From: Candidatus Saccharibacteria bacterium UBA3218
GTDB lineage: Bacteria > Patescibacteriota > Saccharimonadia > Saccharimonadales > Saccharimonadaceae
Direction of reading: 5' to 3'
DNA: 64,000 nt
Assembly: GCA_002363125.1 (NCBI GenBank)
Contig: DEWE01000009.1
Coordinates: 68,489-132,488 of the forward strand
The notes beneath the pieces were generated by a model. The model worked only from the letters and a program-made list of their open reading frames with translations, was not told the origin of the DNA and searched no databases. The stretch's first letter is position 1. The number at the start of each line of letters is the position of its first letter. The position numbers were made by a program, and so were the translations under genes. Below are positions 1 through 58,350 of the stretch, one piece after another.

Positions 1-1180
1 TCTTCTGGAGCGCCAGCTAGTGTGTCCACTCCCACACGGAGAAGCCCAATAGCCGTAGCAAAGGAATGATCTAGATGGTCCTCCTCACCAATGATTAAAT
101 CTGGCAATTCATTAACATCCATCAAATGAATCGTCGGGCGACGCGAAAATGGTAGATTTCGATACCAATCCGAAACCGCAAGGGTTTCTTGGAGCATAGA
201 TAGACTTGCACCGCCGCCACAAAGCAAAACATTGCGCGGGAGGCTACTGAGTGCGTCAAATTCCTCTAGAGCTACCTCTACGCCTGTCAACCAAACACTA
301 AGGTTGCGAGAAATAGCAGATTCAACCTTTGCTTTTATATGGTCGTCTAATTTACCGGTGTCAAAATCTAGTTTGTAACGTTCGGCAGTATCAGTATCTA
401 CGCCGAGTGATTCGGCTATTTGGTGGGTAAAGCTTTTGCCGCCGATTGAAAACATCTTGGTGCCTTCTACGCCACCGTCTTCCACTACGGCAACATCTGT
501 AGTGCCACCACCAATATCCATTACCACGCTAGAGAAGTTTGATTCTAGGTCGTCACCAAGACAAGCCCTGCAAACCGCAAACGGCTCCACCGCTACAGTA
601 AGCAGATCTAGATTTAGCTCTGCACAAACCTTTTCGATGGCGGCAATATGAATAAGTGGGGCAAAAGCCGTATAGAATTGAATTACCACGTCGGACCCTT
701 TAAATCCTACTGGATTAGAAATTCTATAGCCATCGATTGTAAGAGAAACAATGGCCGAATTAATAAGTCTAATCTCTACATTTTTATTGCCAGTCTCTAG
801 AGCGACAGTTTTTTTGGCAACATCACCGGATTTTTCCTGAACTTTTTTGATGATATTATTCATCTCGGATTCGGTAATTGGTTTGTTGGGATTTTTGCGG
901 CTATAACGAACTGTAGTGGTATTTCCTTTGACAAGTTCGCCAGCAACACCTACAACGGTAAGATTGGCGCGCTCGCCGGCTTGTTTTTCTACGTCTACTA
1001 AAGCTTCTTCACAAACCGAAACCACGGCAGGGATATCAGCCACAGCGCCAGCGTACATATTGCCGTCTAATTGTTTGGCCTTGCCGACACCCAAAATTTC
1101 TAGCTTGCCTTTTTTGCCTGGGCGAGCCAAAATCGCTTTGACGAATTCGGTACCAATATCAAGAGCCAGGATAGTACTCA
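1..1180 (-). CDS. ftsA: FtsA-like actin-fold cell-division ATPase (3' end of gene lies beyond window start)
   Basis: Not in ORF track because it is open at the window edge. Manual minus-strand translation from ATG 1180-1178 gives MSTILALDIGTEFVKAILARPG...VVMDIGGGTTDVAVVEDGG...NVLLCGGGASL. These are actin/Hsp70-fold phosphate and adenosine motifs in FtsA order. The start overlaps the rluB stop. Confidence 0.7.
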
Positions 1181-1990
1181 TGGTTTAATTATAACACATT
1201 TACCTGGAGCTAAGCCAGTAAGCTGATATTTACCAAATTGGGTACGATGGAGGGCGGTGACTTTATAGCCAAGTGCAGCGAAAGTACGGCGGATTTGACG
1301 ATTGCGACCTTCAGTAAGCTTAACAATATAGGAATCTTCAGATACCGTCTTTCTCGGGTCGCGTCGCTCACGCCCGTTTGCCTTCGGCAATTCGTTCCGA
1401 GCGCCACGGGGCGAGCGCGCTAAATCTCGCCCTGCCGGGCTCCGAAATCCCCTCGAAAGAGGTATCTTAAGATTTCTTATAACCGTGAACTTACTTGGGC
1501 CATCATCTAACATTACGCCGTAGTCGGAGATCATTTGTTGATGAAGTGGCTCCAAGGGTCTATCAAGTTCCACTTCGTAAATTTTTTCCTTATGAAACCT
1601 TGGGTGGGTCATCTGGAAGGCAAAATTACCATCATTCGTTAATAGAATTAAACCAGAGCTGTCTTTATCTAGGCGGCCGACGGTCTTTAATTTGCGGTAC
1701 TGCCTTGGTAATAATTCGTATAGAGTTGGAGTTTTGCCTTGAGCGCGACGCGAACAAACATAGCCAACTGGCTTATTGAAGGCAATATACAAGAAATCCG
1801 TCTCAAACGGTATTATCTTTCCATTATAACATACTTTATTATTTTTGTCAATTTTTTCCCCTATCTTTGCGGTTTTTCCGTCCACAGAAATACTGCCGAC
1901 AGATATTAAATCGTCGGCTTCACGACGTGAAACGCCTAGGCGCTCAGCGAGAAATTTATTGAGCCGGAGCCCCTGGGATTGGTTGTCCAT
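1178..1990 (-). CDS. rluB: Pseudouridine synthase, RsuA/RluB family, with S4 domain; carries an in-frame palindromic insert
   Basis: 270 aa. S4 motif LRLNKFLAERLGVSRREADDLI. Core motifs FNKPVGYVCS, GRLDKDSSGLILLTNDG, TEGRNRQIRR. An atypical GC-rich segment encodes RGFRSPAGRDLARSPRGARNELPKANGRERRDP. Confidence 0.85.
   Translation of the reverse strand: MDNQSQGLRLNKFLAERLGVSRREADDLISVGSISVDGKTAKIGEKIDKNNKVCYNGKIIPFETDFLYIAFNKPVGYVCSRRAQGKTPTLYELLPRQYRKLKTVGRLDKDSSGLILLTNDGNFAFQMTHPRFHKEKIYEVELDRPLEPLHQQMISDYGVMLDDGPSKFTVIRNLKIPLSRGFRSPAGRDLARSPRGARNELPKANGRERRDPRKTVSEDSYIVKLTEGRNRQIRRTFAALGYKVTALHRTQFGKYQLTGLAPGKCVIIKP
1341..1465. repeat. GC-rich palindromic mini-element, family 1, inside rluB (core antisense to the gene)
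   Basis: Arms gataccgtctttctcggg / cccctcgaaagaggtatc. Core shares gcccgtttgccttcggcaattcg, gagcgccacggg and ccgaaat with the trmD and uvrC copies. Lies on the same (+) strand as those copies although the host gene is on the minus strand. ORF stays open. Confidence 0.8.
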
Positions 1991-2450: not shown

Positions 2451-3865
2451 TGTTGTACTCCGTTTAAGTTGTTATTAATTTTTGGTGATGGTTGAACTAT
2501 CGTGGATGGTGGTACTGGAGGAGAAACTGGTGTAGCTGGCGGGCTGGTGGAGGGCGGCGCAGGTTGAGCAGCGGGCATTTGTGGCAGCGGTTGAACTGGC
2601 TGAGGGGCCACTTGGGCTTGGGCTTGAGCTCTGGCTTGTTCGGCTTGAGCTCTGGCTTGTTCGGCTTGAATCTGTTCTTGCATTTGTTGGTTACGTACAA
2701 CTATCATGCGTTTCTCATATTCATCACTGCTAATCCTAGGTAGGGAAACAAAGAAGGTGGAACCTTCGCCGAAGGCAGATTCTGCCCAGATGCGACCGCC
2801 CATAGCCTCGACGCGTTGTTTGGCAATATAAAGCCCGAGGCCAGTACCACCAATAGTGCGCGTATCGGAATTATCAGCACGATAGAATTTTTGGAAAATA
2901 TGACCAAGATCTTCCGAAGAGATACCAATACCAGTATCAGTAACATTTATAAGTATCTTATCGCCATCACCACGAACATTGACATAAATTGAGCCCCCCT
3001 CTGGGGTGTACTTAATGGCATTACTAATTAAATTATCCATTATCTCACGCATAAAACTTGGGTCGATGAAACCATAAACCAATTGATTCATCTGGCGACT
3101 TTCGCCAAACGAAATCGAATTGTTGGAACCGAAAGTAAGGGAAAGATTCGCCTCTTTGGCACGACCAATATATTCATCGGTAATGGTTTTTACCAAGCCA
3201 ATCATTTCAGCTGGTTCGAAATGTGGCTTTATTTTACCATCATCTAATTTGGTGACATCAAGCAAATCTTGGAATAATTTACCAAGGTGCTTTGAAGCCT
3301 TTTCTGCTGCTGAAAGATAGCCACGAGCGCGTTCATCTATAGTGGCGGTTTGAGGATTGAGTGCTAGAGAAAGGTAGCCATCGATGGTGGCTACTGGTGT
3401 ACGCATCTCATGGGAAGCGGTAGAGATAAATTCGGTCTGTTCGCCTTCTTCGGCAAGTTCTTTTGCTATATTACGAAAAGTGATTATGAAATTTGCGTTA
3501 CCAGCTAAAATAACAGATATACAAATTGGTACACGTTTATTTGATTTACTTGCGATTAAACAACATTGAAAGCCTTCTAACTGTTGCCCAGTTTTTATGG
3601 CTTGAATTAAAGGATTTTCGGCTTCTGACAATTCTCGTCCTTCTTTAGTCTCGATCCTAAGTAAAAGCCCGTAATCCAGGCCAGTGGCATTATTCGCCGA
3701 ATTACATTCTGTCATTATGACGCCAGCTGGATTAATGAATTGGATTATGCCGTTTCTATCTGTAATAATCACGCCGTCATTGATGTTATTAAGCGCCATT
3801 TCGGCCAAACCAGTTTGATTGGCTGTCGGAATTTCGCTAGTTTTATTGCGCTTAAGTATACTCAT
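2447..3865 (-). CDS. Cytoplasmic PAS sensor histidine kinase with Gln/Ala/Pro-rich tail
   Basis: 472 aa. H-box STASHEMRTPVATIDGY, N-box NLISNAIKYTPEGG, G1 DTGIGIS, G2 GGTGLGLYIAK. PAS-like N-terminus. No TM segment visible. 4-bp overlap with the downstream response regulator. Confidence 0.85.
   Translation of the reverse strand: MSILKRNKTSEIPTANQTGLAEMALNNINDGVIITDRNGIIQFINPAGVIMTECNSANNATGLDYGLLLRIETKEGRELSEAENPLIQAIKTGQQLEGFQCCLIASKSNKRVPICISVILAGNANFIITFRNIAKELAEEGEQTEFISTASHEMRTPVATIDGYLSLALNPQTATIDERARGYLSAAEKASKHLGKLFQDLLDVTKLDDGKIKPHFEPAEMIGLVKTITDEYIGRAKEANLSLTFGSNNSISFGESRQMNQLVYGFIDPSFMREIMDNLISNAIKYTPEGGSIYVNVRGDGDKILINVTDTGIGISSEDLGHIFQKFYRADNSDTRTIGGTGLGLYIAKQRVEAMGGRIWAESAFGEGSTFFVSLPRISSDEYEKRMIVVRNQQMQEQIQAEQARAQAEQARAQAQAQVAPQPVQPLPQMPAAQPAPPSTSPPATPVSPPVPPSTIVQPSPKINNNLNGVQQ
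2621..2662. repeat. Perfect 21-bp tandem duplication inside histidine-kinase tail
   Basis: ggcttgagctctggcttgttc occurs twice in a row, with partial copies on both sides. Encodes the AEQARAQ AEQARAQ repeat on the minus strand. Confidence 0.9.
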
Positions 3866-5580: not shown

Positions 5581-6999
5581 ATGAAGATTTTATCCTTAGA
5601 TGTAGGTGAAAAGCGCATCGGCGTGGCACGTGCTGATTCTGGAACTAGAATTGCAGTACCAGTTGGTGTCATAGAGGTTGATGGCTCTGAGTGGCAAGAA
5701 ATTACACGCTTAGCAAAGCTTAATAGCACCAATTTCTTTGTTTTGGGTCTTCCTCGAAGCAACGAAGGAAACGAAACTAAACAGTCTGCTTACGTACGGC
5801 AGTTTGCAAAAACTCTCGTAGAAAAAATACCGGAGGCGAAGATTCGTTTTCAGGACGAATCGCTCACGTCAGTGGTTGCAGAGGAAAGATTAAAATCTCG
5901 TAAGAAAAAATATGAGAAAGGCGAAATTGATGCTGAGGCTGCTTCTATTATTTTGCAGGATTTTTTAGAGAGTTTTGGTCAAAGCATTCCAGAACTATCT
6001 TCTGAGGACCGTAAGCTTGGGCGAGCGCCCTTGAGCGTATCTGAAGAAGATGGTTCGGAACGCTTACAAAGTGTTGCTAATCTAGCAAAAAAAGAGGCAG
6101 ATAAAGTTAAATTAAATACTAAAAAGGCGAAACATAAGATGAAGACTGCAACGAAATGGATTTCTGGGGTGGCTGTAATAGTAATAATTGGATTAGCGGC
6201 AACTGGAATAGCATTGTTTATTAGAGACCAAAGATACAAAGAATATGCTGCTTATTTTGCTGAAGTAGAAGCTAACATGAAAGCAGATGTTTTTGATTTT
6301 ACGATTCGCCCTGGTGAAACGATTTTTGACATTAAAAAACACTTGATTGAAGTAGGGTATTCGGAAAATGAAGTAGACACAGCGCTAAATGCCGACTATG
6401 GCTTTGCCTTTTTGCAAAGTAGGCCAGCTGGGGCGAGTTTAGAGGGCTACCTCTATGGCGAAACACATGAATTTTATAGCGATACATCCGCAAAAGACGT
6501 CATAAAAACATATCTTGATGGCATGAAAAAAGTAATAGATGATAATGATTTAGAATCTAGATATGCGGAAAAGGGATTATCTTTGTATGAAGGAATTACT
6601 TTAGCATCAATAGTGCAAAAAGAGGCCCCTTCTCCAGAGATGCCAACCGTGGCACAAGTGTTTTTGACACGTATGGACTACGGAATACCCCTTGGAAGCG
6701 ATGTAACGGTGTCCTACGCGCTTGATACTATTGATCCTGATAGACAGACGTATACGGACAATCAAAGCGCCCTAAAGATCGACTCTTGCTATAATACACG
6801 AATTTATGCTGGTCTCCCCTGTGGACCAATCTCTAACCCAGGGCTATCCGCACTTCTATCCGTAGCAGATCCATCAGATACGGCTTATCTTTATTTCTTG
6901 ACAGGAGACGACGGAATAATGTATTATAGTTATACAGAGGCGGAGCATATTCAGAATATCCGTAGTCATTGCCAAGACCTCTGTGAAATATCATTATGA
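5581..6999 (+). CDS. ruvX/mltG: Fusion protein: RuvX/YqgF resolvase-like nuclease (N-terminal) + MltG/YceG endolytic transglycosylase (C-terminal)
   Basis: 472 aa. N-terminal part has MKILSLDVGEKRIGVARAD...VLGLPRSNEGNET...DESLTSV (YqgF). Then TM WISGVAVIVIIGLAATGIALFI. Then YceG motifs LEGYLYGETHEF, LASIVQKEA, YNTRIYAGLPCGPISNPG. The junction carries the palindromic element 5989-6058. Confidence 0.8.
   Translation: MKILSLDVGEKRIGVARADSGTRIAVPVGVIEVDGSEWQEITRLAKLNSTNFFVLGLPRSNEGNETKQSAYVRQFAKTLVEKIPEAKIRFQDESLTSVVAEERLKSRKKKYEKGEIDAEAASIILQDFLESFGQSIPELSSEDRKLGRAPLSVSEEDGSERLQSVANLAKKEADKVKLNTKKAKHKMKTATKWISGVAVIVIIGLAATGIALFIRDQRYKEYAAYFAEVEANMKADVFDFTIRPGETIFDIKKHLIEVGYSENEVDTALNADYGFAFLQSRPAGASLEGYLYGETHEFYSDTSAKDVIKTYLDGMKKVIDDNDLESRYAEKGLSLYEGITLASIVQKEAPSPEMPTVAQVFLTRMDYGIPLGSDVTVSYALDTIDPDRQTYTDNQSALKIDSCYNTRIYAGLPCGPISNPGLSALLSVADPSDTAYLYFLTGDDGIMYYSYTEAEHIQNIRSHCQDLCEISL
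5989..6058. repeat. GC-rich palindromic mini-element, family 2, at the ruvX-mltG junction
   Basis: Arms ccagaactatcttctgaggac / gtatctgaagaagatggttcgg. Core ggaccgtaagcttgggcgagcgcccttgagcgt is nearly the same as the intergenic copy at 48411-48489. Translated as SSEDRKLGRAPLSVSEEDGSE. Confidence 0.75.
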
Positions 7000-9275: not shown

Positions 9276-9438
9276 CTCCACTTAGAAAGGACTCATTCGA
9301 AGGCATAGCAATCCCTCTAACCGGCGGGCCCCAATTGTGTGAGGTGGGTTACGCTCCGGGGTTCACCCGGTATAGTAGTGAAGCGTTAGAGGGCCAAAAT
9401 AGCCTCAGGTGATGCCCACCCTTACCTGAGGCTTTTTT
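9276..9438 (+). ncRNA. Candidate structured RNA of unknown class, ending in a strong intrinsic terminator
   Basis: GC-rich island in AT-rich spacer. Closing stem ccctctaac (9313-9321) / gttagaggg (9385-9393). Inner hairpin ccggg-gttca-cccgg. Terminal hairpin gcctcagg...cctgaggc followed by tttttt. 5' end and strand are not certain. Confidence 0.4.
9402..9438 (+). terminator. Rho-independent terminator; usable in both directions
   Basis: gcctcaggtgatgcccacccttacctgaggc followed by tttttt on the + strand. On the minus strand the same hairpin is followed by tatttt, just after the stop of the 9454-9888 ORF. Confidence 0.7.
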
Positions 9439-14756: not shown

Positions 14757-14907
14757 AAGCTGATACGCTTCACAGGGGTTCCACTGATTACTTAGTGGAG
14801 TGTGGAGACTTACATTAAAAACAAAAACAGCGGATTAAAACAAACCAATGTGCCCCAGGGTGGGCGCGCATCAGCGCGGGAGAGACGACTTCAAGTCGTC
14901 TCTTTTT
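14757..14907 (+). ncRNA. Candidate ~150-nt structured sRNA of unknown class, with its own promoter and terminator
   Basis: 5' gctgatacgc pairs with gcgcatcagc (14873-14884). Hairpin ccact-gattactt-agtgg. Stem acatt/aatgt encloses an A-rich loop. Terminator gagagacgact-tca-agtcgtctc plus ttttt. No plausible ORF. The trmD promoter follows immediately. Confidence 0.5.
14879..14907 (+). terminator. Rho-independent terminator of the sRNA candidate
   Basis: ggagagacgacttcaagtcgtctc followed by ttttt. Confidence 0.75.
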
Positions 14908-14952
14908 GTTTCCCCTGGTGAATTAACAGGGGAAATGTGGTATAATAAGAAC

Positions 14953-15729
14953 ATGATTAAATTCACAATTATCACTTTGTTTAAGGAAGCTCTGGAGCCA
15001 TATCTCAAAACCTCCATGATGTGGAAGGCTACAGAAAAAGGTTTAGCGGAGTTTGATTTTGTGGATTTACGTGAATTTGGCTTAGGACCACATAAGTCCG
15101 TAGATGATACGCCGTACGGGGGCGGGGACGGGATGTTGCTCCGATGCGAGCCAGTTTTTGCTGCAATTGAGTCTGTAAAAGCTAAAGATCCAGATGCGAA
15201 AGTTATTTTACCTACCCCTGTAGGTAAAATCTGGAATCAAGAAATGGCTAGAGAGTTTGCGTTTTACTCGGGGCCGCGTCCGTCCGGCCCGTTTGCCTCC
15301 GGCAATTCGCTTCCCAAGGGGCGAGCGCCACGGGTGGACGACGTTATCTCTCGCGCTGCCGCGATCCGAAATAACCCGAGTCAAAATGCAAACTCTCACT
15401 ACATCATCTTGTGTCCTCACTACGAGGGATATGACGAGAGAATTTTGTCGATTGTAGATTATAAAATTTCGCTTGGAAAATATGTTTTAACAGGTGGGGA
15501 ATTACCCGCGCTTATTATTATCGATTCCGTTGTACGGCTAATACCTGGAGTGCTTGGTGGAGAAACTTCTGCCGAGATCGAGAGCTTTTCTGAAGGTGAC
15601 AACCTAGAATATCCTCAATATACCAAACCTTACGATTTTCGTGGGATGACGGTGCCAGATATTCTGCTCTCCGGCAATCACGGTGAAATAGCAAAGTGGC
15701 GCAAGGACCATAGTGGCAAAGCGTTGTGA
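14953..15729 (+). CDS. trmD: tRNA (guanine37-N1)-methyltransferase TrmD with a ~45-residue in-frame palindromic insert
   Basis: ORF 14848-15729. True start taken as ATG 14953 (MIKFTIITLFKEALEPYL). TGgTATAAT ends 6 nt upstream. Motifs DDTPYGGGDGM, CPHYEGYDERI, LTGGELPALIIIDSVVRLIPGVLG. Insert encodes FYSGPRPSGPFASGNSLPKGRAPRVDDVISRAAAIRNNPSQNA. Confidence 0.9.
   Translation: MIKFTIITLFKEALEPYLKTSMMWKATEKGLAEFDFVDLREFGLGPHKSVDDTPYGGGDGMLLRCEPVFAAIESVKAKDPDAKVILPTPVGKIWNQEMAREFAFYSGPRPSGPFASGNSLPKGRAPRVDDVISRAAAIRNNPSQNANSHYIILCPHYEGYDERILSIVDYKISLGKYVLTGGELPALIIIDSVVRLIPGVLGGETSAEIESFSEGDNLEYPQYTKPYDFRGMTVPDILLSGNHGEIAKWRKDHSGKAL
15251..15397. repeat. GC-rich palindromic mini-element, family 1, inside trmD (147 bp = 49 codons between outer arm ends)
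   Basis: Arms gagagtttgcgttttactcggg / cccgagtcaaaatgcaaactctc. The ~113-nt core is near-identical to the uvrC copy. Confidence 0.85.
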
Positions 15730-19667: not shown

Positions 19668-21260
19668 ATGGGTAAAATTACCAAATATTTGAATCAGTTG
19701 ATTATTGGTAATGTTTTTGATTCGCCCGAAATTCTGGAAGCTTATTCCGTTGATCGTTCCGTGCTCAAGATTAAACCAAAATTTGTAGCCTTCCCAGAAT
19801 CTACAGAAGATATTCGTAAATTGATGCGGTTTTTTAATCAGATTGCCGCCAAAGAAATACCGGTATCAGTGACAGCGAGAGGTTCTGGGCTAGATGAAGG
19901 TGGCGCAGATTTATCTTCGGCTGGACTCGTGATTTCGACAGAAAAATTAAACCGCATGCTGGAAATCGACCCGCGCGAGAGATTAGTGCGAGTACAGGCT
20001 GGGATCACTTTAAGGGAGTTAAACACAGCCTTATCTGTGTCTGGTTTAACTATCCCGATCGAGGGGCACGATGGCGACACGATTGGTGGATTGATTTCAA
20101 ATGCGCCAATTGATAATAATGCCAACAAATACGGTGGGATTAGCAATTTCGTAGAACGTATAGAGGTGATATTGGCCAACGGTGAATGTTTGCAGACTAG
20201 TCGGTTGAAGAAGTACAACGTAGCAAAAAAGGCTGCCGAAAAATCCATGGAAGGCGACGTTTACCGTAAGATTTCGAAATTACTTAAAACTAAAGCTGAA
20301 TTTATTGACGTACTCACAAAGAATCCATCTATGGATCGTAGTGGTTATCCAACAATTACAAAAGTTCAACGTAAAGATACCCTGGATTTAATGCCATTAT
20401 TCTTCGGCGCCCAAGGAACGCTAGGCGTTATATCTGAAGTAATTTTAAGGGCAATACCAATCGCAAAAAATCCAATGCGCGTAGTAGCTACGTTTAAAGA
20501 ATTGGATCCGGCTCTAGAGTTTGCCTATGCTATTAAGCTATTAAAACCACGGACGATAAATCTATATGATTTAAAAATCATTCAGGAAGCACGAGAATCT
20601 GGTAAAAATCTTGATGGTGTAATTCGTAAATTAGAGGACGGATTTGTAATTTTTGCGAATTTTGATGAAAAAATTAATTTATGTTTAAAGAAATTAACTG
20701 CAATGCAAAATGATTTCCCGCGTACCGCTAAATTTATTTTTGAAAAACCAGAAAATCGCGTCACCCTAAATGAATTCGAAAATTCTTTGTCTGTATATCT
20801 GAATACCGCAAAAGACGGTGAACGCGTGCCGGTTTTGACGGATTTCTATCTACCGTCGCACAATATTAATAGTTTCTTGAAAGATTTGAAAGTTTTAGAA
20901 GAAAAGTTGGGTTTGGATCTGGCACTTTATGGATCTTATGCTACGTCTATTTATAATCTAAGGCCAAAGTTTAATTTGGAAGACAAAGATTTTAATAAAA
21001 AAGTAGCGACATTTTTGCGAGCCGGAGCCTATGTAATAAATAGACAAGATGGCAAGTTGGCAGGCGGTACGCCAGAAGGTAGATTAAAGGCAGTGGTCAC
21101 AAATACCGAAATGAAAGATGCTGAGCGGGATCTATACGAAAAAATCAAAGAAATCTTTGATCAAAACAATATCCTAAATCCAGACGTAAAACTAGGCGCC
21201 AGTTCTAAATTCACTTTGACTCATTTTCGCGATACAAATCTCCCTAAAATCATGATATAA
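19668..21260 (+). CDS. FAD-linked oxidase/dehydrogenase (GlcD / D-lactate dehydrogenase-like)
   Basis: ORF 19572-21260 overlaps the tRNA, so the start is taken at ATG 19668 (MGKITKYL), downstream of TGcTATAAT at 19649-19657. FAD-binding PCMH region FPESTEDIRKLMRFF...VTARGSGLDEGG...RVQAGITLRELN. Confidence 0.8.
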   Translation: MGKITKYLNQLIIGNVFDSPEILEAYSVDRSVLKIKPKFVAFPESTEDIRKLMRFFNQIAAKEIPVSVTARGSGLDEGGADLSSAGLVISTEKLNRMLEIDPRERLVRVQAGITLRELNTALSVSGLTIPIEGHDGDTIGGLISNAPIDNNANKYGGISNFVERIEVILANGECLQTSRLKKYNVAKKAAEKSMEGDVYRKISKLLKTKAEFIDVLTKNPSMDRSGYPTITKVQRKDTLDLMPLFFGAQGTLGVISEVILRAIPIAKNPMRVVATFKELDPALEFAYAIKLLKPRTINLYDLKIIQEARESGKNLDGVIRKLEDGFVIFANFDEKINLCLKKLTAMQNDFPRTAKFIFEKPENRVTLNEFENSLSVYLNTAKDGERVPVLTDFYLPSHNINSFLKDLKVLEEKLGLDLALYGSYATSIYNLRPKFNLEDKDFNKKVATFLRAGAYVINRQDGKLAGGTPEGRLKAVVTNTEMKDAERDLYEKIKEIFDQNNILNPDVKLGASSKFTLTHFRDTNLPKIMI

Positions 21261-23104: not shown

Positions 23105-23581
23105 ATGCCACGCAAAACCACTAAATCATTAGTACGCAAGGTTAGCCCTGATCGTAAATATCAATCTATGTTAGTACAAAGACTTATTAATAAGTCTATG
23201 CTTGATGGTAAAAAGCAGGTCGCTGAACGTGCTGTTTATTCTGCAATCGAAGGCGCTGCAAAAAAATTGAAGTCCGAAAATCCAGTGGAAGTTTTGGAAA
23301 AGGCTATCGCCAACGTATCACCAGATTTTGAAGTGAAGTCTCGTCGCGTTGGTGGCGCTAACTATCAAATTCCATTCCCAATCTCTGGTCATCGTCAACT
23401 TCACTTTGCATTTTCATGGTTAGTACAATCTGCTCGTGCACGCGGTGGTATGCCATATGCAAAACGCCTAGAAGCAGAAATTGTCGATGCCTATAACGAA
23501 ACCGGTGCTGCCTTCAAGAAGAAGGAAGATTGCCACCGTATGGCAGAAGCAAACCGCGCATTTGCGCATTTTGCAAGATAA
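23105..23581 (+). CDS. rpsG: 30S ribosomal protein S7
   Basis: 158 aa. VKSRRVGGANYQIP, MAEANRAFAHFA. Confidence 0.97.
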   Translation: MPRKTTKSLVRKVSPDRKYQSMLVQRLINKSMLDGKKQVAERAVYSAIEGAAKKLKSENPVEVLEKAIANVSPDFEVKSRRVGGANYQIPFPISGHRQLHFAFSWLVQSARARGGMPYAKRLEAEIVDAYNETGAAFKKKEDCHRMAEANRAFAHFAR

Positions 23582-23586
23582 CATTA

Positions 23587-23710
23587 GAGACAACAAAAAA
23601 TACCTTTGTGGGACCGGAGTCGCTCGCTCCCGTCGTTACGGGGCTCGCGCTCCTCGCGTTCTCGGTCGTAACCTCCGAAGCGTCCCAAAAGGTATTTTTT
23701 TGTTGTTTTC
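23587..23710. repeat. GC-rich palindromic mini-element, family 3, intergenic (3' of rpsG); terminator-like
   Basis: ~25-bp arms acaacaaaaaatacctttgtgggac / gtcccaaaaggtatttttttgttgt around core ggagtcgctcgctcccgtcgttacggggctcgcgctcctcgcgttctcggtcgtaacc. The right arm ends in a T-run. Confidence 0.85.
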
Positions 23711-23755: not shown

Positions 23756-24760
23756 ATGGTAAAAGTCGCAATTAACGGCTTTGGGCGAATTGGCCGTAAT
23801 GCATTAAAGATATTACTAGATCGGCGCGACGTGCAAGTCGTAGCGATAAACGATATAACGGACGCCAAGACTTTAGCGCATCTTTTAAAGCACGATTCTT
23901 CGTATGGTACATACGATAAGAACGTAAAAGCTGGTGAAAATTCGATCATTATAAATTCTCGCGAAATACCAGTATTCGCCGAAAAAGATCCGGCAAATTT
24001 GCCATGGAAAAAACTGGGGGTTGATGTAGTTATAGAATCTACTGGGTTCTTCACGAAGCCAGAAGATGCTCGCGCGCATATTAAGGCTGGTGCGAAGAAA
24101 GTTGTGATTTCTGCTCCGGCTAAAGGTGATGGCGCAAAAACTATAGTACTGGGTGTGAATGAAGAAATAGTTGATGATAAAGACGAAATCCTATCCAACG
24201 CTTCTTGTACGACTAACTGTATCGCTCCAGTAATGAAGGTTCTCGAAGATGAATTTGGTATAGAAAAGGCCATGATGACTACGGTGCACTCCTATACTGG
24301 TTCGCAGAGACTTCTAGATGCACCAGCAAAGGATTTACGCGAAGCGAGATCTGCTGCTGAAAATATTGTACCTACTACTACTGGTGCGTCAAAAGCAGCT
24401 GCAAAAACTATCCCATCACTCACTGGTAAATTTAATGGCTTGTCCGTGCGCGTTCCTACTCCAGTAGTATCACTTTCCGACATCACCGCCATTTTAAAAC
24501 GCGATACCTCAAAAGAAGAATTAATTAAAGTTTTTAAAAAAGCCGCAAAAGAGCCTTACTATGAGGGAATTATTGGCGTAACGGAAGAAGAGTTGGTATC
24601 ATCAGATTTCATCGGCGACCCACATTCCTGTATAGTGGATCTACCATTAATCGACGTGGTTGGTGGCAATATGATAAAAGTCGTAGCTTGGTATGACAAT
24701 GAGTGGGGCTATTCCAACCGTTTAGTAGAACTCGCTGTAGATTTTGGGAAGGGTGAATAA
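23756..24760 (+). CDS. gap: Glyceraldehyde-3-phosphate dehydrogenase, type I
   Basis: INGFGRIGR, SNASCTTNC, WYDNEWGYS. Confidence 0.95.
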   Translation: MVKVAINGFGRIGRNALKILLDRRDVQVVAINDITDAKTLAHLLKHDSSYGTYDKNVKAGENSIIINSREIPVFAEKDPANLPWKKLGVDVVIESTGFFTKPEDARAHIKAGAKKVVISAPAKGDGAKTIVLGVNEEIVDDKDEILSNASCTTNCIAPVMKVLEDEFGIEKAMMTTVHSYTGSQRLLDAPAKDLREARSAAENIVPTTTGASKAAAKTIPSLTGKFNGLSVRVPTPVVSLSDITAILKRDTSKEELIKVFKKAAKEPYYEGIIGVTEEELVSSDFIGDPHSCIVDLPLIDVVGGNMIKVVAWYDNEWGYSNRLVELAVDFGKGE

Positions 24761-30339: not shown

Positions 30340-31719
30340 ATGGATGAGGCTTTAAAACAAAAACTTGATAAACTCCCGGTGGCTCCGGGGGTTTATTTTC
30401 ATAAAAATGCGACTGGGGAAATAATTTACGTTGGTAAGGCCGCGGTACTCAAAAATCGTGTGAGGCAATATTTCCAAAAATCGCAAAAGGATATAAAGAC
30501 TGAGGCTTTGGTGAAAGAAATTGCCGACACTGACTGGATAGTAGTAGACACAGAAATGGATGCTTTGTTTTTGGAGTCCGAAATGATCAAACGGTATATG
30601 CCAAAGTGGAATATTTTGCTCCGTGACGACAAGACAGTTTCATACGTCAGGATAAATATGAATGATGAAGTGCCATATGTATCTTTTACGAGAAACCCGG
30701 TAGATGACAAGGCTACCTACATTGGTCCATTTTATGGAAAAACTGCAGTAGAAAAGGCGGTGAGGATCCTAAGAAGAATTTTTCCTTACTACGACAAGCC
30801 ATATACTGGCAAAAAAACTTTAAACACAGACCTAGGACTGACACCTGGAATAGAAGTAGGAAAGAGTACCCCAAAAGATTATAAAAGAAATTTGCGTAAA
30901 TTGATTAGCTATCTCGGAGGAAATCGCGAGAAATTACTTAAAGAATTAGAAAAAAGTATGCATGACTCAGCATCGCGCGGTGATTATGAACTGGCAGCTG
31001 AGGCTCGCAACCAACTTTTTGGCCTGAAAGAATTAAAAAAGAAGATTGTCTTTTCCAATAAAGAATTCATGGATATTTCTTCTGATCAGGCGCTGAAACA
31101 ATTACAGAATTTGCTAAATCTCGAGAAGCCACCACGCAGAATAGAAGGGTATGATATTTCACATCAATCTGGCACTAACACCGTTGGGAGTATGGTGGTA
31201 TTCGTTAATGGGGCCTCCGCCAGAAACGAATACCGTAAATTCAAAATCCGTACTAGTACAAACGACGATTTGAAAAGTATGCAAGAAATAATCTCGCGTC
31301 GTCTAAAACATAAAGAGTGGGAATATCCAGATTTGATAATTCTAGATGGCGGAACTACACAAGTCAACGCAATTTTGCCACTCCTTGAGCCATACGGCAT
31401 ACCGGTGATTGGTCGTGATAAATCTGGTGATCATTCACATAACGCAAGGGTTGAGTTGGTATTTCAAGACTATCGAGTTCTCGGGCCGCGTCCGTCCGGC
31501 CCGTTTGCCTCCGGCAATTCGCGTCCCAAGGGGCGAGCGCCACGGGCGGACGGCGCTATCTCTCGCGCTGCCGCGCTCCGAAATACCCGAGAACTTCGAT
31601 GTCTTGAATTACCATCTAGCTCTCATATTGCGAGATTAATCGCAAGGATAGACGAAGAAAGTCATCGTTTTGCAGTTACGTATCACACTTTACTCAAGCG
31701 TAGAAATATGCTAAAGTAG
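30340..31719 (+). CDS. uvrC: Excinuclease ABC subunit C lacking the C-terminal (HhH)2 domain; in-frame palindromic insert
   Basis: 459 aa. GIY-YIG GVYFHKNATGEIIYVGKA. UVR GDYELAAEARNQLFGL. Endonuclease domain RIEGYDISH...LIILDGG...IDEESHRFAVTYH. Ends about 10 residues later. Insert encodes LGPRPSGPFASGNSRPKGRAPRADGAISRAAALRNTRE. Confidence 0.85.
   Translation: MDEALKQKLDKLPVAPGVYFHKNATGEIIYVGKAAVLKNRVRQYFQKSQKDIKTEALVKEIADTDWIVVDTEMDALFLESEMIKRYMPKWNILLRDDKTVSYVRINMNDEVPYVSFTRNPVDDKATYIGPFYGKTAVEKAVRILRRIFPYYDKPYTGKKTLNTDLGLTPGIEVGKSTPKDYKRNLRKLISYLGGNREKLLKELEKSMHDSASRGDYELAAEARNQLFGLKELKKKIVFSNKEFMDISSDQALKQLQNLLNLEKPPRRIEGYDISHQSGTNTVGSMVVFVNGASARNEYRKFKIRTSTNDDLKSMQEIISRRLKHKEWEYPDLIILDGGTTQVNAILPLLEPYGIPVIGRDKSGDHSHNARVELVFQDYRVLGPRPSGPFASGNSRPKGRAPRADGAISRAAALRNTRELRCLELPSSSHIARLIARIDEESHRFAVTYHTLLKRRNMLK
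31463..31608. repeat. GC-rich palindromic mini-element, family 1, inside uvrC
   Basis: Arms ttcaagactatcgagttctcggg / cccgagaacttcgatgtcttgaa. Core differs from the trmD copy by about 5 substitutions and 2 single-base indels, counted by eye. Confidence 0.85.
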
Positions 31720-36921: not shown

Positions 36922-36949
36922 AAAGAAAAAGGGAGGCATTAAGCCTCCC
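36922..36949 (-). terminator. Rho-independent terminator after the 36955-37287 ORF
   Basis: Minus strand reads gggaggcttaatgcctccc followed by tttttcttt. Confidence 0.7.
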
Positions 36950-36954
36950 GCGAG

Positions 36955-37339: not shown

Positions 37340-37368
37340 ATTATAGCACAAACATAATAAAAAGTCAA
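37340..37368 (-). promoter_or_regulatory. Consensus promoter TTGACT-17-TATAAT (minus strand)
   Basis: Minus strand reads ttgactttttattatgtttgtgctataat. Confidence 0.6.
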
Positions 37369-37390
37369 CCCCCCGCAGCGGGTGCGGGGG
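37369..37390 (-). terminator. GC-rich hairpin after the ClpP-like gene
   Basis: Minus strand reads cccccgcacccgctgcgggggg then ttgacttttt. The T-tract is interrupted. Confidence 0.45.
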
Positions 37391-37404
37391 TTTCGGGGTA
37401 AAGA

Positions 37405-46958: not shown

Positions 46959-48407
46959 ATGTTACTTGAAGATTATAGAAACGAAAGATTAAAAAAATTA
47001 GATGAGTTAAAAGCGCGTGGGATCAATCCTTACCCAGCCAAGAGCTTCCGCAATACGAAAATCTCTGAAATTATTAATCATTTTGATGAAAAAGATGGCC
47101 AAGAGGTGACTTTGGCTGGCAGAATTGTCGCAATTCGTTCCTTTGGCAAGCTTGTTTTTATTAAAATCCGTGATTACTTCGGCGAGATTCAGATTTTTAT
47201 GAAGGCCGAAGGCGAAACACCAGAAGGCTTGCTTGGAGCAAAAGACGTAAAACTACTTGATTTAGGTGATTTCATTGAAGTAACTGGTAAAATCGGCAAA
47301 TCGCAGACTGGTGAAATTTCGATATTCTCTAACTTTGTAAAGTTACTAACAAAATCGCTCAGGCCTTTACCAGAAAAGTTCACCAATAAGGAGGAGCGCT
47401 ATCGTAGGCGTTATGTAGACATGAACGTGAACCCAGAAGTACGCGAAAGATTAGTGCGTCGTAGTAAATTCTGGCAAGCCACACGTGATTTTATGAATAA
47501 ACATGGTTTTATCGAAATAAATATCCCAGTTCTCGAGCACACTACTGGTGGTGCAGATGCTACGCCTTTTACCACTCACATGAATGCTCTAAATGAAGAT
47601 TTTTATCTACGCATTTCGCATGAGTTGCCACTAAAAAGACTCCTTGGTGGTGGTTTTGAAAAAGTTTACGATATTGGTCCAAGGTTTAGAAATGAGGGCG
47701 TGGACGACGAACATTTACCAGAGCATATCGCATTCGAATCCTATGCTGCATATGAAAACTACGAAGATGGCATGAAGCTTTACGAAGAAATGATAAAATA
47801 TGTCGCGATGGAGACTTGGGGCACGTTAAAGTTTCATGTGGGCGGTTTCGATATTGATTTAGACTGCGAATGGCCAAGAATAAAATACGCGGATCTTTTG
47901 AAAGAAAAATTCGACGTAGACGTATTTAACCCGGATCGTGAACAGTTAATAAGAATCTTGAAAGAGAATGGAGTAGAAACGAATTTTGACGTGAGCGAAG
48001 CTCGCTTGATTGATCATGTCTGGAAATTAATTCGCAAAACTTCGGCTGGACCATATTGGTTGATCGAAGAGCCACTAAGTTTGTCGCCACTGGCAAAGAA
48101 ATCTGCCGAGAATCCTCTAGTAACTGAACGCTTCCACCCGATCATTGCCGGAACCGAAATGGGGAATGGCTTCTCGGAGTTAAACGATCCGTTGGACCAG
48201 CTAGAAAGATTTAGAGAGCAGCAAGCGGCACGCGACGCTGGAGACGAAGAAGCACAGATGTTAGATATGGATTTTGTGGAAATGCTAGAATACGGTATGC
48301 CACCAGCTTGTGGTTGGGGTAACTCTGAACGCAATTTCTGGCTACTTGAGGGAGTACCAGGACGCGAAGCGGTACCATTTCCAACGATGAAGTCTAAGGA
48401 AGAATAA
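46959..48407 (+). CDS. lysS: Lysyl-tRNA synthetase, class II
   Basis: 482 aa. OB anticodon-binding domain. YRRRYVDM, FRNEGVDDEHLPE, GWGNSERNF-type motif 3 region. Confidence 0.95.
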   Translation: MLLEDYRNERLKKLDELKARGINPYPAKSFRNTKISEIINHFDEKDGQEVTLAGRIVAIRSFGKLVFIKIRDYFGEIQIFMKAEGETPEGLLGAKDVKLLDLGDFIEVTGKIGKSQTGEISIFSNFVKLLTKSLRPLPEKFTNKEERYRRRYVDMNVNPEVRERLVRRSKFWQATRDFMNKHGFIEINIPVLEHTTGGADATPFTTHMNALNEDFYLRISHELPLKRLLGGGFEKVYDIGPRFRNEGVDDEHLPEHIAFESYAAYENYEDGMKLYEEMIKYVAMETWGTLKFHVGGFDIDLDCEWPRIKYADLLKEKFDVDVFNPDREQLIRILKENGVETNFDVSEARLIDHVWKLIRKTSAGPYWLIEEPLSLSPLAKKSAENPLVTERFHPIIAGTEMGNGFSELNDPLDQLERFREQQAARDAGDEEAQMLDMDFVEMLEYGMPPACGWGNSERNFWLLEGVPGREAVPFPTMKSKEE

Positions 48408-48410
48408 AGA

Positions 48411-48489
48411 GTTTTGAACGATTTACTTTTAGGACCGTAAGCTTGGCCGAACGGCCTTGAGTGTGTCCTAAAAGTAAATCGTTTAAAAC
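48411..48489. repeat. GC-rich palindromic mini-element, family 2, intergenic; bidirectional terminator-like hairpin
   Basis: 25-bp arms gttttgaacgatttacttttaggac / gtcctaaaagtaaatcgtttaaaac. Core cgtaagcttggccgaacggccttgagtgt. The right arm contains the stop codon of the convergent DUF167 gene. Confidence 0.85.
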
Positions 48490-48701
48490 TCTATAATTTT
48501 GCTATGTGACTTCGCGCCACGAATGATACTGATTGTGGTCTTTGGGACTTTGAAATGTTTTGCGAGAATCTTGATTAGAGCATCGTTGGCTTCGCCGTCA
48601 TGTGGTTTAGCGCGAAGATAAACTGTGAGCTCATTTAGTGCAGTTTCAATGATTTTCTCTTGCGACGATCCAGGTTTTACAGTAATAGTATAGCGATTCA
48701 T
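48483..48701 (-). CDS. DUF167 (YggU) family protein
   Basis: 72 aa. VYLRAKPHDGEANDALIKILAKHFKVPKTTISIIRGAKSHSK. Confidence 0.75.
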   Translation of the reverse strand: MNRYTITVKPGSSQEKIIETALNELTVYLRAKPHDGEANDALIKILAKHFKVPKTTISIIRGAKSHSKIIEF

Positions 48702-48744: not shown

Positions 48745-50817
48745 ATGCCTAAGTTTAATTTAGTGTCAAAATTTCAACCTACGGGCGACCAGCCGATGGC
48801 GATTAAACAGCTAACGGATGGTATTTTGGCGGGAGTGAAAGAGCAGACTTTACTCGGCGTAACTGGTTCTGGTAAAACTTTCACAATGGCAAATATTATC
48901 CAGAATATCCAAAAGCCAACGTTGATTTTGGCACACAACAAAACTTTGGCGGCTCAACTTTATTCTGAGTTCCGCGAGTTTTTTCCAAATAATGAAGTAC
49001 ACTATTTTGTATCATATTTCGATTATTACCAGCCAGAAGCTTATATTGCATCTACCGATACATATATTGAGAAAGACTCGGCGATAAATGATGAGATTGA
49101 TAGGCTTAGACACGCCGCAACCGAAGCTTTACTTACGCGTAGCGACGTAATTATTGTGGCATCCGTCTCTTGTATTTATGGTATTGGCTCGCCAGAGCAT
49201 TACACCGAAATGTCATTGCCACTATGGAAGAAATCCGATAAGGAATGGGTGGCAAATGATTCTCCGTCGGGAACGCTCCGGGGCGCTAGCCAGAGTCTTA
49301 CTCCCTCCGGAGAACATTTTGCCACCCTTTCGCAATTAGACTTTATTCGTCGTTTGGTGTCAATGCAATATCATAGAAACGATCTCGCGTTTGAGCGAGG
49401 TAATTTCCGCGTGATGGGCGATACTATAGATTTATATCCTGCAAACGGAGAATATGCTTATAGATTTGAGTTTGGCTTCGATAATTTGGAAGAAGTAAAA
49501 ATTGTAGATCCTTTAACCTTTGATATACGAGAAAGACCAGACCATGTGCATATTTTCCCAAATACACACTATGCTACACCGATGGACCAACTAGAAAAAG
49601 CTTTAGTGACTATCCGTGCGGAGTTTGATGAACGAATGAAATATTTCGAAAAGAACCAAAAATATCTAGAGGCGCAGAGATTATCCCAACGCACAAAATA
49701 TGATCTTGAGATGTTAAAAGAAACTGGTTTTGTAAAGGGAATTGAAAATTATTCTCGGCATCTAGACGGCAGGAAGCCTGGAGAGCCACCTTCTACACTA
49801 CTCGATTTCTTCCCGAAAGACTTTTTATTAATCGTAGACGAGAGCCATATGACTTTGCCGCAGGTGCGTGGTATGTATAACGGAGATCATGCTCGCAAAA
49901 AAACTTTAGTGGAATATGGTTTTCGTTTGCCAAGTGCAATGGATAACCGTCCGCTGACTTATGGTGAATTCCAACACCATATCAACCAAGCTATTTATGT
50001 TTCCGCCACGCCAGGAGAATATGAACTCGAAAATTCTCCTAAACCGGCCGAGCAAGTAATTCGCCCTACTGGACTTTTGGATCCAGAAATAGAAGTCCGT
50101 GGTAGCGAAGGGCAAATTGACGATTTAATGGAAGAAATTGATAAACGTATTGCCAAAGGGCAACGCACACTTATTACTACACTAACTAAACGAATGGCAG
50201 AAGATTTAACCGATCATTTAAAGGAGCGTGGCGTAAAGACCGCCTACATACATTCCGATGTAGACACGTTAGAGCGAAGCGACATACTAAGAGATTTACG
50301 TTCTGGAGTTTATGATGTTTTGGTCGGCATTAATCTTTTGCGAGAAGGGTTGGATCTACCAGAAGTGTCACTCGTGGCAATCCTTGATGCCGATAAAGAA
50401 GGGTTTCTCCGTTCCGAGTCAGCATTAATACAAACCATTGGTCGCGCAGCAAGGCACGAAGAGGGCAAAGTGATAATGTATGCGAATTTTATTACTGAGA
50501 GCATGGAAAAGGCTATATCGGAGACAAATCGTCGCCGTGAAATCCAGAAAGAGTACAATATAGAACACAATATTACGCCAAAATCCATTAAAAAAGAAGT
50601 GAACGTGGGGCTCCGTGCGATTATTCCAGAAAAAGAGAAGGAAAATAAATTAGATATCAAGCGTATACCAAAAGATGAGCTACCAGCACTAGTAAAACAA
50701 CTTTCTTCCGAAATGCAACTTGCAGCGGCCAATCTAGAGTTTGAACGCGCCGCTATGCTACGAGATGAGATAGAAAGAATTAAAGATTTTATAGATGGCA
50801 ATAAGATGAAAAAATAA
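48745..50817 (+). CDS. uvrB: Excinuclease ABC subunit B with a 27-codon in-frame palindromic insert
   Basis: 690 aa. [25 protein letters not shown] domain [16 protein letters not shown]. Insert [22 protein letters not shown] lies where E. coli UvrB is contiguous (LHLTVGMIIDQRAILRRL). Confidence 0.97.
49247..49327. repeat. GC-rich palindromic mini-element (short variant, 81 bp) inside uvrB
   Basis: Arms gggtggcaaatgattctccg / cggagaacattttgccaccc. Core tcgggaacgctccggggcgctagccagagtcttactccct. Confidence 0.75.
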
Positions 50818-50845: not shown

Positions 50846-51781
50846 ATGAGTGGGCGAATTGACGTTAAAACGATCGAGAAAATCAAGCGGAGAATCAGAT
50901 TTTGTGATTATCTATCAGTAGCACAGCTATATCTTAAGAGTAATTTTTTACTAGAACACCCGTTAAATGCTGACGACATAAAGCCTAGACTACTAGGACA
51001 CTGGGGAACTTGTCATGGCATCAATGTAGCATATGCAAATTTCAAAAGTTATTTTAAGGATGATCCTAATTTTAGTTTTGTTTTGGGGCCAGGCCATGGC
51101 TTTCCGGCGCTACAGGCGAATTTATTGGTTGATGGCGAACTAGCAAAAGTAGATCCTATGGCCACAGTAGACAGAAGCGGAATTGCCTATATTTGCAAAC
51201 ATTTTTCTTGGCCAGATGGATTTCCGAGTCATGCTAGTCCATATACCCCGGGTATTATTACTGAGGGTGGAGAACTAGGTTACGCGCTAGCTAATGCTTA
51301 TGGGTTAAATCTTGGTCATCCAGAAAAAACTACAGCAGTACTAATAGGCGATGGGGAACTAGAAACCGCTACAGCAATAGATTCACTTAACTTGCGCAAT
51401 TTATTGTCTGGATCAAAAAACGGTAAAATTCTGCCAATTCTTCATCTTAATGGCTACAAAATCTCTGCACCGTCTATTTATGCAAGAAAATCCGAGCGAG
51501 AACTAAACGAAATGATCCGTGGTTTTGGATTTAATCCCGTAATGATAGATGGTGAAGATACTGAATCGTTCCAGATAAAATTATCAGAAAATATAGAAGA
51601 TCCATTTTACATTTTAAAGACCGAAAAGGGGTTTGGTGGCCCAAATAGACACCATGAGGCTCATCAGATACCGATTAAGGATCCAAAAAACAAAGCCGAA
51701 GAACTCAGTGCCCTAGAAGATTGGCTAAAATCTTATAACGTTACTGACCTTGTAAAAAATCTGGAGGATATAAAACTATGA
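50846..51781 (+). CDS. xfp: Phosphoketolase, N-terminal (TPP pyrophosphate-binding) part
   Basis: 311 aa. LLGHWGTCHGIN, GPGHGFPA, EGGELGYALANAYG, GDGELETA, LHLNGYKISAPS, AHQIPI. Confidence 0.85.
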   Translation: MSGRIDVKTIEKIKRRIRFCDYLSVAQLYLKSNFLLEHPLNADDIKPRLLGHWGTCHGINVAYANFKSYFKDDPNFSFVLGPGHGFPALQANLLVDGELAKVDPMATVDRSGIAYICKHFSWPDGFPSHASPYTPGIITEGGELGYALANAYGLNLGHPEKTTAVLIGDGELETATAIDSLNLRNLLSGSKNGKILPILHLNGYKISAPSIYARKSERELNEMIRGFGFNPVMIDGEDTESFQIKLSENIEDPFYILKTEKGFGGPNRHHEAHQIPIKDPKNKAEELSALEDWLKSYNVTDLVKNLEDIKL

Positions 51782-58062: not shown

Positions 58063-58350
58063 ATGGATATTAAACGCGAGGATATTTTGCATCTAGCCAA
58101 TTTGTCTGATTTTTCATTATCTGATGCAGAGATCGAATCTCTAGGTGAAGATTTACAGGGGATTATTAGATATATCTCGCAACTTGAGGAGCTAGACACG
58201 GATGGTATTGAGCCGACTTATCAAGTATTCGAAATGGAAAATGTATGGCGTGAAGATGAGATAAAACCACAAGATGCTTCGCGCGAGCAACTACTGGCTC
58301 TTACAAAAGAAGAAAAAGATAATCAAATAAAGGTTCCGAAGGTATTGTAA
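58063..58350 (+). CDS. gatC: Glu/Asp-tRNA amidotransferase subunit C
   Basis: 95 aa. LANLSDFSLSDAEIESL...LDTDGIEPT. Confidence 0.9.
   Translation: MDIKREDILHLANLSDFSLSDAEIESLGEDLQGIIRYISQLEELDTDGIEPTYQVFEMENVWREDEIKPQDASREQLLALTKEEKDNQIKVPKVL

Follow-up and report, generated by a model that had tools for sequence, protein, structure and literature searches.

The spacer between rpsG and gap in a 64,000-nucleotide stretch of contig DEWE01000009.1 from Candidatus Saccharibacteria bacterium UBA3218 (the whole stretch is hereafter the window) holds one copy of a superfamily of small, GC-rich, hairpin-forming, non-autonomous insertions hosted by the ruminant-gut Saccharibacteria of Candidatus Nanosyncoccus. 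The majority are in-frame, translated additions to loops of housekeeping proteins, and a minority lie just after genes. Each consists of a core conserved within its family and enclosed by inverted arms peculiar to the copy, an observation that we regard as solid. We estimate a probability of about 0.5 that DNA template switching, and not carriage by the element, accounts for the building and continued pairing of the outer arms and for the flipping of the cores.

Hairpin insertions with copy-specific arms

The flagged stretch (positions 23587-23710) lies between the stop codon of rpsG (23579-23581; open reading frame (ORF) 23105-23581) and the promoter and ribosome-binding site of gap (ORF 23756-24760). 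Its left arm ACAACAAAAAATACCTTT and right arm AAAGGTATTTTTTTGTTGT form an inverted repeat of 18-25 nt, the pairing of which extends inward to the family-conserved termini GGGAC/GTCCC (Table 1). The core has a GC content of 65%, against 40% for the window, and the copy folded as single-stranded DNA gives -33.8 kcal/mol (z = -6.4), a value equalled by none of 200 shuffles. There are nine such copies in the window, all with a long outer stem and fold z scores of -2.6 to -10.6. Copies of the superfamily measure 65-150 nt, with cores of ~40-115 nt, and none has an ORF of its own. The nine in the window fall into four core families: FamA (rluB-like gene, trmD and uvrC), FamB (the flagged copy, lysS-3' and ruvX-mltG), FamC (gatA and gatB) and FamD (uvrB). 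A first-pass annotation, made from the letters of the window alone, had described copies bracketed by copy-specific inverted arms of 18-27 bp; the six arm pairs it quoted are present verbatim and three further copies (in the rluB-like gene, ruvX-mltG and gatA) are built alike, but arm lengths span a slightly wider range, ~14 to 39 nt. In trmD and uvrC the cores are ~94% identical, yet the arms are unrelated.

Relatives of the window (denoted here by L numbers) were collected in three ways. The relatives found with TrmD, UvrC and GAPDH were Candidatus Saccharibacteria; a genome scan with GatA gave ~21 kb from each of 80 species, mainly of ruminant-gut origin, that belong to Ca. Nanosyncoccus and its allies; and a metagenome scan with an 18-nt core motif (CCCGTCGTYACGGGGCTC) gave 123 hits, of which 79 fall at a wide variety of genes in contigs with less than 50% GC. 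The evidence is throughout comparative and drawn from metagenome assemblies, some of them chimeric at the repeat. Among 89 copies carrying the motif in ~2 Mb of related Ca. Nanosyncoccus DNA, ~90% are long-stemmed, with a median stem score of 35 (~26 aligned positions); when left and right flanks were taken from different copies, the median fell to 14 and the 99th percentile was 23. GC islands with an arm score of at least 20 numbered 51, against 6 in a displaced-flank control.

The conserved termini are short, ~7-11 nt (CTCGGGG/CCCCGAG, GGGAC/GTCCC and TTC-TCGG/CCGA-GAA), and the family-conserved unit is the core with a short terminal inverted repeat, roughly (T/A)TTC-TCGG...CCGA-GAA(A/T); the long outer arms lie outside this unit. 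Apart from the TTC/GAA junction, the flanks have no fixed tetranucleotide. The swapped-flank null gives direct repeats at least as long as those outside the hairpins, so there is no direct target duplication beyond chance. The first-pass annotation had raised the possibility of many sub-families each with its own arms. We rejected this: among 3003 copy pairs, likeness of arms was confined to orthologues, in which the outer flanks match too, with one exception (discussed below), and the arms of 103 elements in 2 Mb matched orthologous loci only. The outer arms are locus-specific, then, and are not terminal repeats of the element. A search of the sampled DNA for donor loci of the window arms gave none.

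Could the stems reflect chance complementarity or an assembly artefact? Some contigs do look chimeric at the repeat: in L100/L183 and L141 the left and right flanks come from different loci and are joined at the core, either by assembly chimerism or by real recombination between copies. Against this stand the fold z scores of the window copies, the failure of both displaced-flank and swapped-flank nulls to reproduce the stems, and the recurrence of the same hairpin architecture in independent assemblies from many studies, and we give the artefact explanation practically no weight.

Origin and later evolution of the arms

Orthologues that lack the element were compared with filled sites. In trmD, where the left outer arm had been noticed to encode REFA in line with conserved host sequence, the empty sites of L001, L087 and L210 keep REF(A) and have no right arm (L001 AGAGAGTTT-AAAAAAGACGCT-CATTAC; L210 GAGTTTGCC-AAGGATGCT-CAC). 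In uvrB the left arm contains a host-conserved W, and in QueA of L182 it encodes the conserved host GDVLEIM. In uvrC, alignment of VTPK-LEYLELP with VIPEYSK[core]LEYLELP places the host sequence on the side of the right arm. Together with gatB and the outer layer of lysS-3', described next, these comparisons indicate that host sequence makes up one of the two arms, at least in its outer part.

At gatB, 51 species have an empty site with a uniform 36-nt loop that has no palindrome. Insertion points within this loop vary by family, and the outer arm ends overlie conserved host codons (L015 GGGCAACTA vs host GGCGAAATT). By an approximate arithmetic, the net gain in length nearly equals that of the core with one arm rather than two (observed length, then the expectations for one and for two arms: window 105, 101 and 123 nt; L011 63, 60 and 92 nt; L083 99, 99 and 131 nt; L015 105, 105 and 140 nt; L018 105, 102 and 135 nt; L032 147, 141 and 170 nt). 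The lysS-3' site is empty in three species, and the window insertion there is 79 nt long, starting within the final codons of lysS. The host supplies its right outer arm (AAAACTCTATAAT), the empty sites keeping AAAACTC; the left outer arm (AATAAAGAGTTTT) repeats that host right flank in inverted form and restores the stop codon. The arms at lysS-3' have host-derived outer and new inner parts and are therefore layered. The polarity of arm expansion at gatB and lysS-3' is that given by comparison only.

Short forms with one arm occur in trmD of L003, in gatA of L006, L007 and L016, and in uvrB of L039. We considered them as decisive pre-insertion states and rejected this, because internal palindromes let the arms serve as direct repeats as well, and because the forms are scattered on the GatA tree; they are probably deletion remnants. 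The tree, a single-gene neighbour-joining (NJ) tree of low resolution (L006-L085), has filled, empty and one-arm loop states interspersed, a pattern that implies either repeated, independent gain and loss in Nanosyncoccus species or lateral exchange between them.

The arms continue to change together at occupied sites. Across seven orthologous gatA copies the arm helix has 25 pairs, with 92% of cells paired, and 15 of the 25 pairs have changed on both sides, a number reached in none of 500 shuffles; slid controls were 23-39% paired. The gatA copies of L038 and L053 (genomes of 92.8% average nucleotide identity (ANI)) have cores that are ~93% identical once one is reverse-complemented, and arms that are only ~60% identical, each still self-complementary. 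At least eight compensated differences have arisen within ~7% genome divergence, which is too fast for mutation and selection. Reverse-complemented cores between homologous arms were seen in at least five species pairs: the flagged site (window/L003), gatA (L038/L053), gatB (L015/L019 and window/L026) and a TatD-like gene (L116/L166). In the window/L003 pair a 2-nt bulge beside the core travels with it, so the switch points lie within the arms. The first-pass annotation had read the arms as an insertion signature. The host derivation of one arm agrees with this, but the arms keep co-evolving after insertion and the cores flip, which makes a one-off event improbable.

Arm homogenisation, arm expansion and spacer inversion are all published behaviours of template switching, and we therefore infer this mechanism. 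Template switching between inverted-repeat arms homogenises the arms and inverts the spacer (PMC8604942), it expands arms (PMC13100816; also PMC3820800), and quasi-palindrome template switching is documented in E. coli (PMC7202029). We propose that the short terminal repeat of the core would seed a hairpin, and that DNA-polymerase template switching between the arms (fold-back or quasi-palindrome) would then lengthen the inverted repeat outward by copying one flank, inverted, onto the opposite side. The same switching would pass changes from arm to arm, so that the sequence drifts while complementarity is kept, and would now and then invert the core. Selection would retain only in-frame, stop-free outcomes in tolerant protein loops, and in new copies some inner arm layers may travel with the insert, giving layered arms. 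Of the three explanations offered in the first-pass annotation (pre-existing hairpins, fold-back or template-switch repair, and sub-families with their own arms), fold-back or template switching is the best supported.

Several observations weigh against template switching as a full account. The base-by-base comparison with empty sites, which the first-pass annotation had suggested, recovers one arm in the host at trmD, uvrB, uvrC, gatB and QueA, but the three species with an empty lysS-3' site lack the inner 16 nt of each arm, and simple copying of the immediate flank does not account for these inner layers. Several gatB sites lie between the one-arm and two-arm expectations, and the one-arm forms can be read as pre-insertion or as post-deletion. 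The exception among the 3003 pairs is L092 (a FemAB-like gene) and L182 (QueA), whose arms are identical at 21 of 24 positions in unrelated genes with different core sub-families, which suggests that arms can move from a donor locus to another. Inside the cores, the hairpin stems around conserved loops vary from copy to copy and are perfectly compensated; the family is therefore under structural selection, which could extend to the outer arms. Finally, nested insertions occur in core hairpin loops (FamA-long vs FamA-short; L038), and these, with the arms shared among rpsG-gap spacers (below), favour some targeting of hairpin tips.

Some of these points would be expected if the arms were inserted with the core, only their pairing were selected (as a hairpin for mobility or stability), and their sequence were randomised by compensatory change. 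The strong covariation of the outer arms, the compensated stems inside the cores, the lysS-3' inner arms absent from empty sites on both sides and the arms common to L092 and L182 at different genes are all in accord with such element-borne arms. However, one arm is host-coded and present in empty sites at trmD, uvrB, uvrC, QueA and gatB, and the net insertion approximates the core plus one arm. Cores of ~94% identity carry arms with no residual similarity, the 103 arms match at orthologous loci only, and the L038/L053 differences accumulated too fast. We consider that the arms are improbable passengers of the element.

The rpsG-gap spacer itself raises another possibility. The relatives L003, L209, L211 and L214 have the same outer arms as the flagged copy; between them L003 carries the reverse complement of the window core, while the spacer of L210 has a different core family. 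The outer arms are kept in at least five species and enclose FamB (+), FamB (-), FamB variant and FamA-short-like cores. A single arm pair with three core families may also fit a hairpin that is a recurrent target, a further point against template switching as the origin of these arms. According to this alternative, cores insert preferentially at the tips of pre-existing hairpins (terminators or earlier palindromes), the arms are the resident hairpin, and the cores, of whatever family and orientation, are gained and lost. In the flagged copy, taken alone, the arms may have been a terminator hairpin older than the insert. Many unrelated core families in the same protein loops and the nested insertions in the central core hairpin loop point the same way, as do core-less palindromes (GAACTTTTCTTAAAAGAAAAGTTC in the rpsG-gap spacer of L212, and one of 6 bp at the empty uvrC site of L086) and cores that look younger than the arms or the host gene (86-99% vs 74-77% identity). 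On the other hand, there is no hairpin at the 51 gatB, the three lysS-3' or the trmD empty sites, arms overlap conserved host codons on one side only, and insertion points within a loop differ by family. In L038/L053 the core divergence equals the genome divergence, which fits inversion in place over re-insertion. Insertion at resident hairpins is thus an unlikely general origin of the arms, though a less doubtful one than their carriage by the element. At the flagged site it predicts a core-less AACAAAAAATACC...GGTATTTTTTGTT hairpin in a short spacer. Six look-ups of GAPDH relatives for an empty rpsG-gap site returned filled spacers only; one relative (P0258 genome; GCA_016648615.1) has a short spacer of 71 nt, known by its length only.

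We also considered a role in RNA, as a structured RNA or an RNase III site, or through ribosomal bypassing or an intron-like excision. In favour of it, the hairpins have high stability, and the flagged and lysS copies occupy terminator-like positions: the flagged copy begins 9 nt past the rpsG stop, ahead of the gap promoter, and its right arm is T-rich. Its loop exceeds the length that a simple terminator scan accepts, and the scan did not call it. Short, GC-rich hairpins of the canonical terminator type occur elsewhere in the window (36928-36950 and 37368-37395), and the genome is therefore independent of long element hairpins for termination. Stem mismatches on the sense strand are G·T in 44 cases and A·C in 45, so the pairing is kept in DNA, with no RNA wobble preference. 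More than 50 filled sites are all in frame and stop-free, the same site tolerates both orientations and several frames, and no Rfam family matched even at E = 10. An RNA-level role is accordingly very improbable. Inteins, uptake sequences, ribosomal bypassing and intron-like removal were each rejected on frame conservation, size and orientation independence.

Template switching at the arms leaves the spread and conservation of the cores to be accounted for. Cores of orthologous copies are 86-99% identical, compared with 74-77% for gatA DNA and 42-50% for its third positions, synonymous sites being saturated; this implies nucleotide-level constraint, re-invasion or cross-species conversion. We tentatively suggest, at odds well below those for template switching at the arms, that the cores are transposase-free, self-propagating palindromic DNA, and/or that they stay near-invariant through a DNA-level function or cross-species gene conversion (natural transformation). 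If self-propagating, cores would spread by polymerase template switching in which the folded-back terminal repeat acts as the primer, and would gain at each new site an outer stem layer from the host flank that could be carried onward. The arms would then be a layered record of copy history, as the QueA-derived arms in the FemAB gene may exemplify.

Coding context and relation to known elements

Seven of the nine window copies are intragenic, in frame and stop-free. Among 76 non-redundant copies, 70 (92%) fall within frames that run for at least 450 nt with no stop, compared with 81% of random control windows, and the lengths at filled sites are all multiples of three (24 in gatA, 9 in uvrB and 19 in gatB). 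In TrmD the insert contributes 45 residues in place of a 3-residue loop of the solved homologue 3ky7. The same loops of TrmD, GatA, GatB, UvrB, UvrC and the TatD-like protein hold different core families in either orientation and in several frames, depending on the species. The longest and most perfect stems belong to intergenic copies (28/28 at lysS-3' and 28/28 in L060), which fits a mutational process restrained by protein constraints.

Searches for a known family or a mobilising enzyme were negative. Rfam, applied with gathering thresholds to the whole window and in E-value mode to the flagged and trmD copies up to E = 10, returned no family. Phage and plasmid collections contained nothing similar to the elements, and a scan of viral contigs gave nothing comparable, its single match, in a contig of 66% GC, being taken as chance. 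The first-pass annotation had proposed looking for a mobilising enzyme; none emerged, as Pfam identified no transposase or recombinase in 28 window ORFs tested and tblastn no IS200-like TnpA in 2.1 Mb of sampled DNA, a limited sample. Literature searches brought to light no account of such elements in either Saccharibacteria or Patescibacteria.

The closest parallel in behaviour is with the Rickettsia palindromic elements (RPEs), which are likewise small, palindromic and non-autonomous, lie in frame in unrelated housekeeping genes and are translated, with several families in a host-associated bacterium of reduced genome (PMC10969869). The likeness is one of behaviour and not membership by sequence, and the host here is a saccharibacterium. 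The Saccharibacteria cores are GC-rich islands in a 40% GC genome, and ~92% of the sampled copies are intragenic, compared with roughly half of RPEs. Their outer stems are locus-specific and partly host-derived, and cores occur in both orientations at one site. To our knowledge, neither an intragenic share of ~92%, nor locus-specific host-derived stems, nor cores in both orientations have been described for RPEs.

Organellar GC-rich hairpins (yeast mitochondrial GC clusters, small inverted repeats of sponges and placozoans, and the double-hairpin elements of Allomyces) also proliferate in AT-rich, compact genomes (PMC7813641), within coding and rRNA genes, at recurrent positions and with no known transposase (PMC7813641 and references it cites). 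The present elements differ in their bacterial host, larger size and conserved multi-hairpin cores, and descriptions of the organellar hairpins do not include long outer stems specific to a locus. Locus-specific, partly host-derived, co-evolving stems together with frequent core flips are absent from the descriptions of both RPEs and organellar hairpins.

Classical miniature inverted-repeat transposable elements, or MITEs (Correia, ERIC, RUP and SPRITE), are similarly small and multicopy, with terminal inverted repeats and sometimes a terminator-like placement (PMC10969869). The Saccharibacteria elements, by contrast, have no direct target-site duplication, no parent insertion sequence (IS) or transposase was found in the 28 window ORFs tested or the 2.1 Mb, and the conserved terminal repeat is only ~7-11 nt, the remainder of the stem being locus-specific. 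REP/BIME-RAYT and IS200/IS605 palindrome-associated elements resemble them in being hairpin-based, handled as single-stranded DNA, free of target duplications and precise in insertion and excision. Those elements, however, are extragenic, with conserved hairpins, a specific target of 4-5 nt and a Y1 HUH transposase, whereas the present copies are mostly intragenic and have no fixed target, and no Y1 enzyme was found in the sampled DNA, a limited sample. Described cases of template switching at inverted repeats share arm homogenisation, spacer inversion and, putatively, arm expansion with the present elements (PMC8604942, PMC13100816, PMC7202029, PMC3820800). They concern short native inverted repeats with small spacers, whereas here a mobile GC-rich core of 40-115 nt seeds the repeat and the arms reach 20-39 nt inside essential genes, at hundreds of loci and in many species; the spread of the cores is not accounted for by such cases.

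An ultra-small symbiont with a reduced genome (CPR/Saccharibacteria) tolerates about one GC-rich palindromic insertion per 7 kb, most of them in essential proteins, such as TrmD, UvrB, UvrC, GatA, GatB, QueA and TatD, in which the same surface loops are remodelled recurrently. The elements offer a natural experiment in putative arm growth, in homogenisation and in spacer inversion at hundreds of sites in many species, processes for which the earlier record comes mainly from short native repeats of yeast and E. coli. They raise the questions of how cores move with no visible transposase and how they keep 86-99% identity while synonymous sites are saturated. In practice, the repeats cause contig chimeras and inflate protein-length variation in the annotation of Saccharibacteria metagenome-assembled genomes (MAGs).

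Copies and other features of the window

Table 1. Positions, families and arms of the nine element copies in the window.
Copy	Family	Position	Strand	Arms and context
rluB-like pseudouridine synthase gene	FamA	1335-1472		arms 1335-1353 and 1455-1472; ORF 1178-1990, minus strand
ruvX-mltG (YceG) fusion gene	FamB, short	5992-6056		arms 5992-6005 and 6040-6056; in frame, ORF 5581-6999
trmD	FamA-long	15251-15397		arms 15251-15265 (encodes host REFA) and 15383-15397; in frame, ORF 14848-15729
flagged copy, intergenic (rpsG-gap)	FamB	23590-23706	.	arms 23590-23607 and 23688-23706; core ~23608-23687; termini GGGAC/GTCCC
uvrC	FamA-long	31463-31608		arms 31463-31479 and 31592-31608; in frame, ORF 30340-31719
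directly 3' of lysS	FamB, short	48397-48503		perfect 28-bp stem 48408-48492; full inverted repeat 39 nt; z = -10.6
uvrB	FamD	49247-49327		left arm 49247-49261 spans host-conserved (G/E)W; in frame, ORF 48745-50817
gatA	FamC	59060-59169		same arms in L083; in frame, ORF 58350-59816
gatB	FamC	61216-61328		right arm resembles host loop, left arm an inverted copy; in frame, ORF 60235-61752

The copy in the rluB-like gene has the + orientation of the other FamA copies but lies in a minus-strand gene, and is therefore translated in reverse. The ruvX-mltG orthologue of L003 has no element and shows a 31-residue gap at its position. The window gatA copy is, from their common arms, orthologous to that of L083, and the gatB copies of L026 and L083 have arms homologous to those of the window, with the core of L026 flipped.

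FamA-long is separated from FamA-short by a 33-nt mini-insert with CGCGTCCCAAGGGGCG, located in the loop of the core's central hairpin (CCCGT^CG..ACGGG; window 15290-15330 and 31500-31540; L038 10745-10780); the same mini-insert is a recent difference between L038 and L053. At the gatA site of L078 (~3340-3400), a 24-nt AT-rich perfect palindrome (AAATATCAAATAAATTTGATATTT) lies inside a core, bordered on both sides by the direct repeat CCTCGC(C)TCG of 9-10 nt, and has the look of a separate small element, one with a genuine target duplication.

The rpsG-gap spacer of L212 (9727-10000) is 274 nt long and combines its perfect core-less palindrome with a canonical terminator and a FamA-short element with very different arms. 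In L210, L211 and L213 (at 19788-21005), a gene for a large serine recombinase (Resolvase and Zn_ribbon_recom) adjoins an SBP_bac_5 gene and is probably part of an integrative element; it is missing at the corresponding position of the window.

Just upstream of the true trmD start, a GC-rich stretch (14819-14911) is called as an N-terminal extension (MCPRVGAHQR...) here and in several relatives; Rfam gave nothing convincing for it. Between two minus-strand ORFs lies a conserved GC-rich hairpin, CCCTCTAAC...GTTAGAGGG (window 9313-9393; L003 6039-6121), which is unrelated to the element families; it had no match in an Rfam E-value scan and may be a small RNA. The phosphoketolase gene is present as two overlapping ORFs, 50846-51781 (XFP_N) and 51778-52917 (XFP and XFP_C), which may represent a frameshift, a pseudogene or a genuine split.

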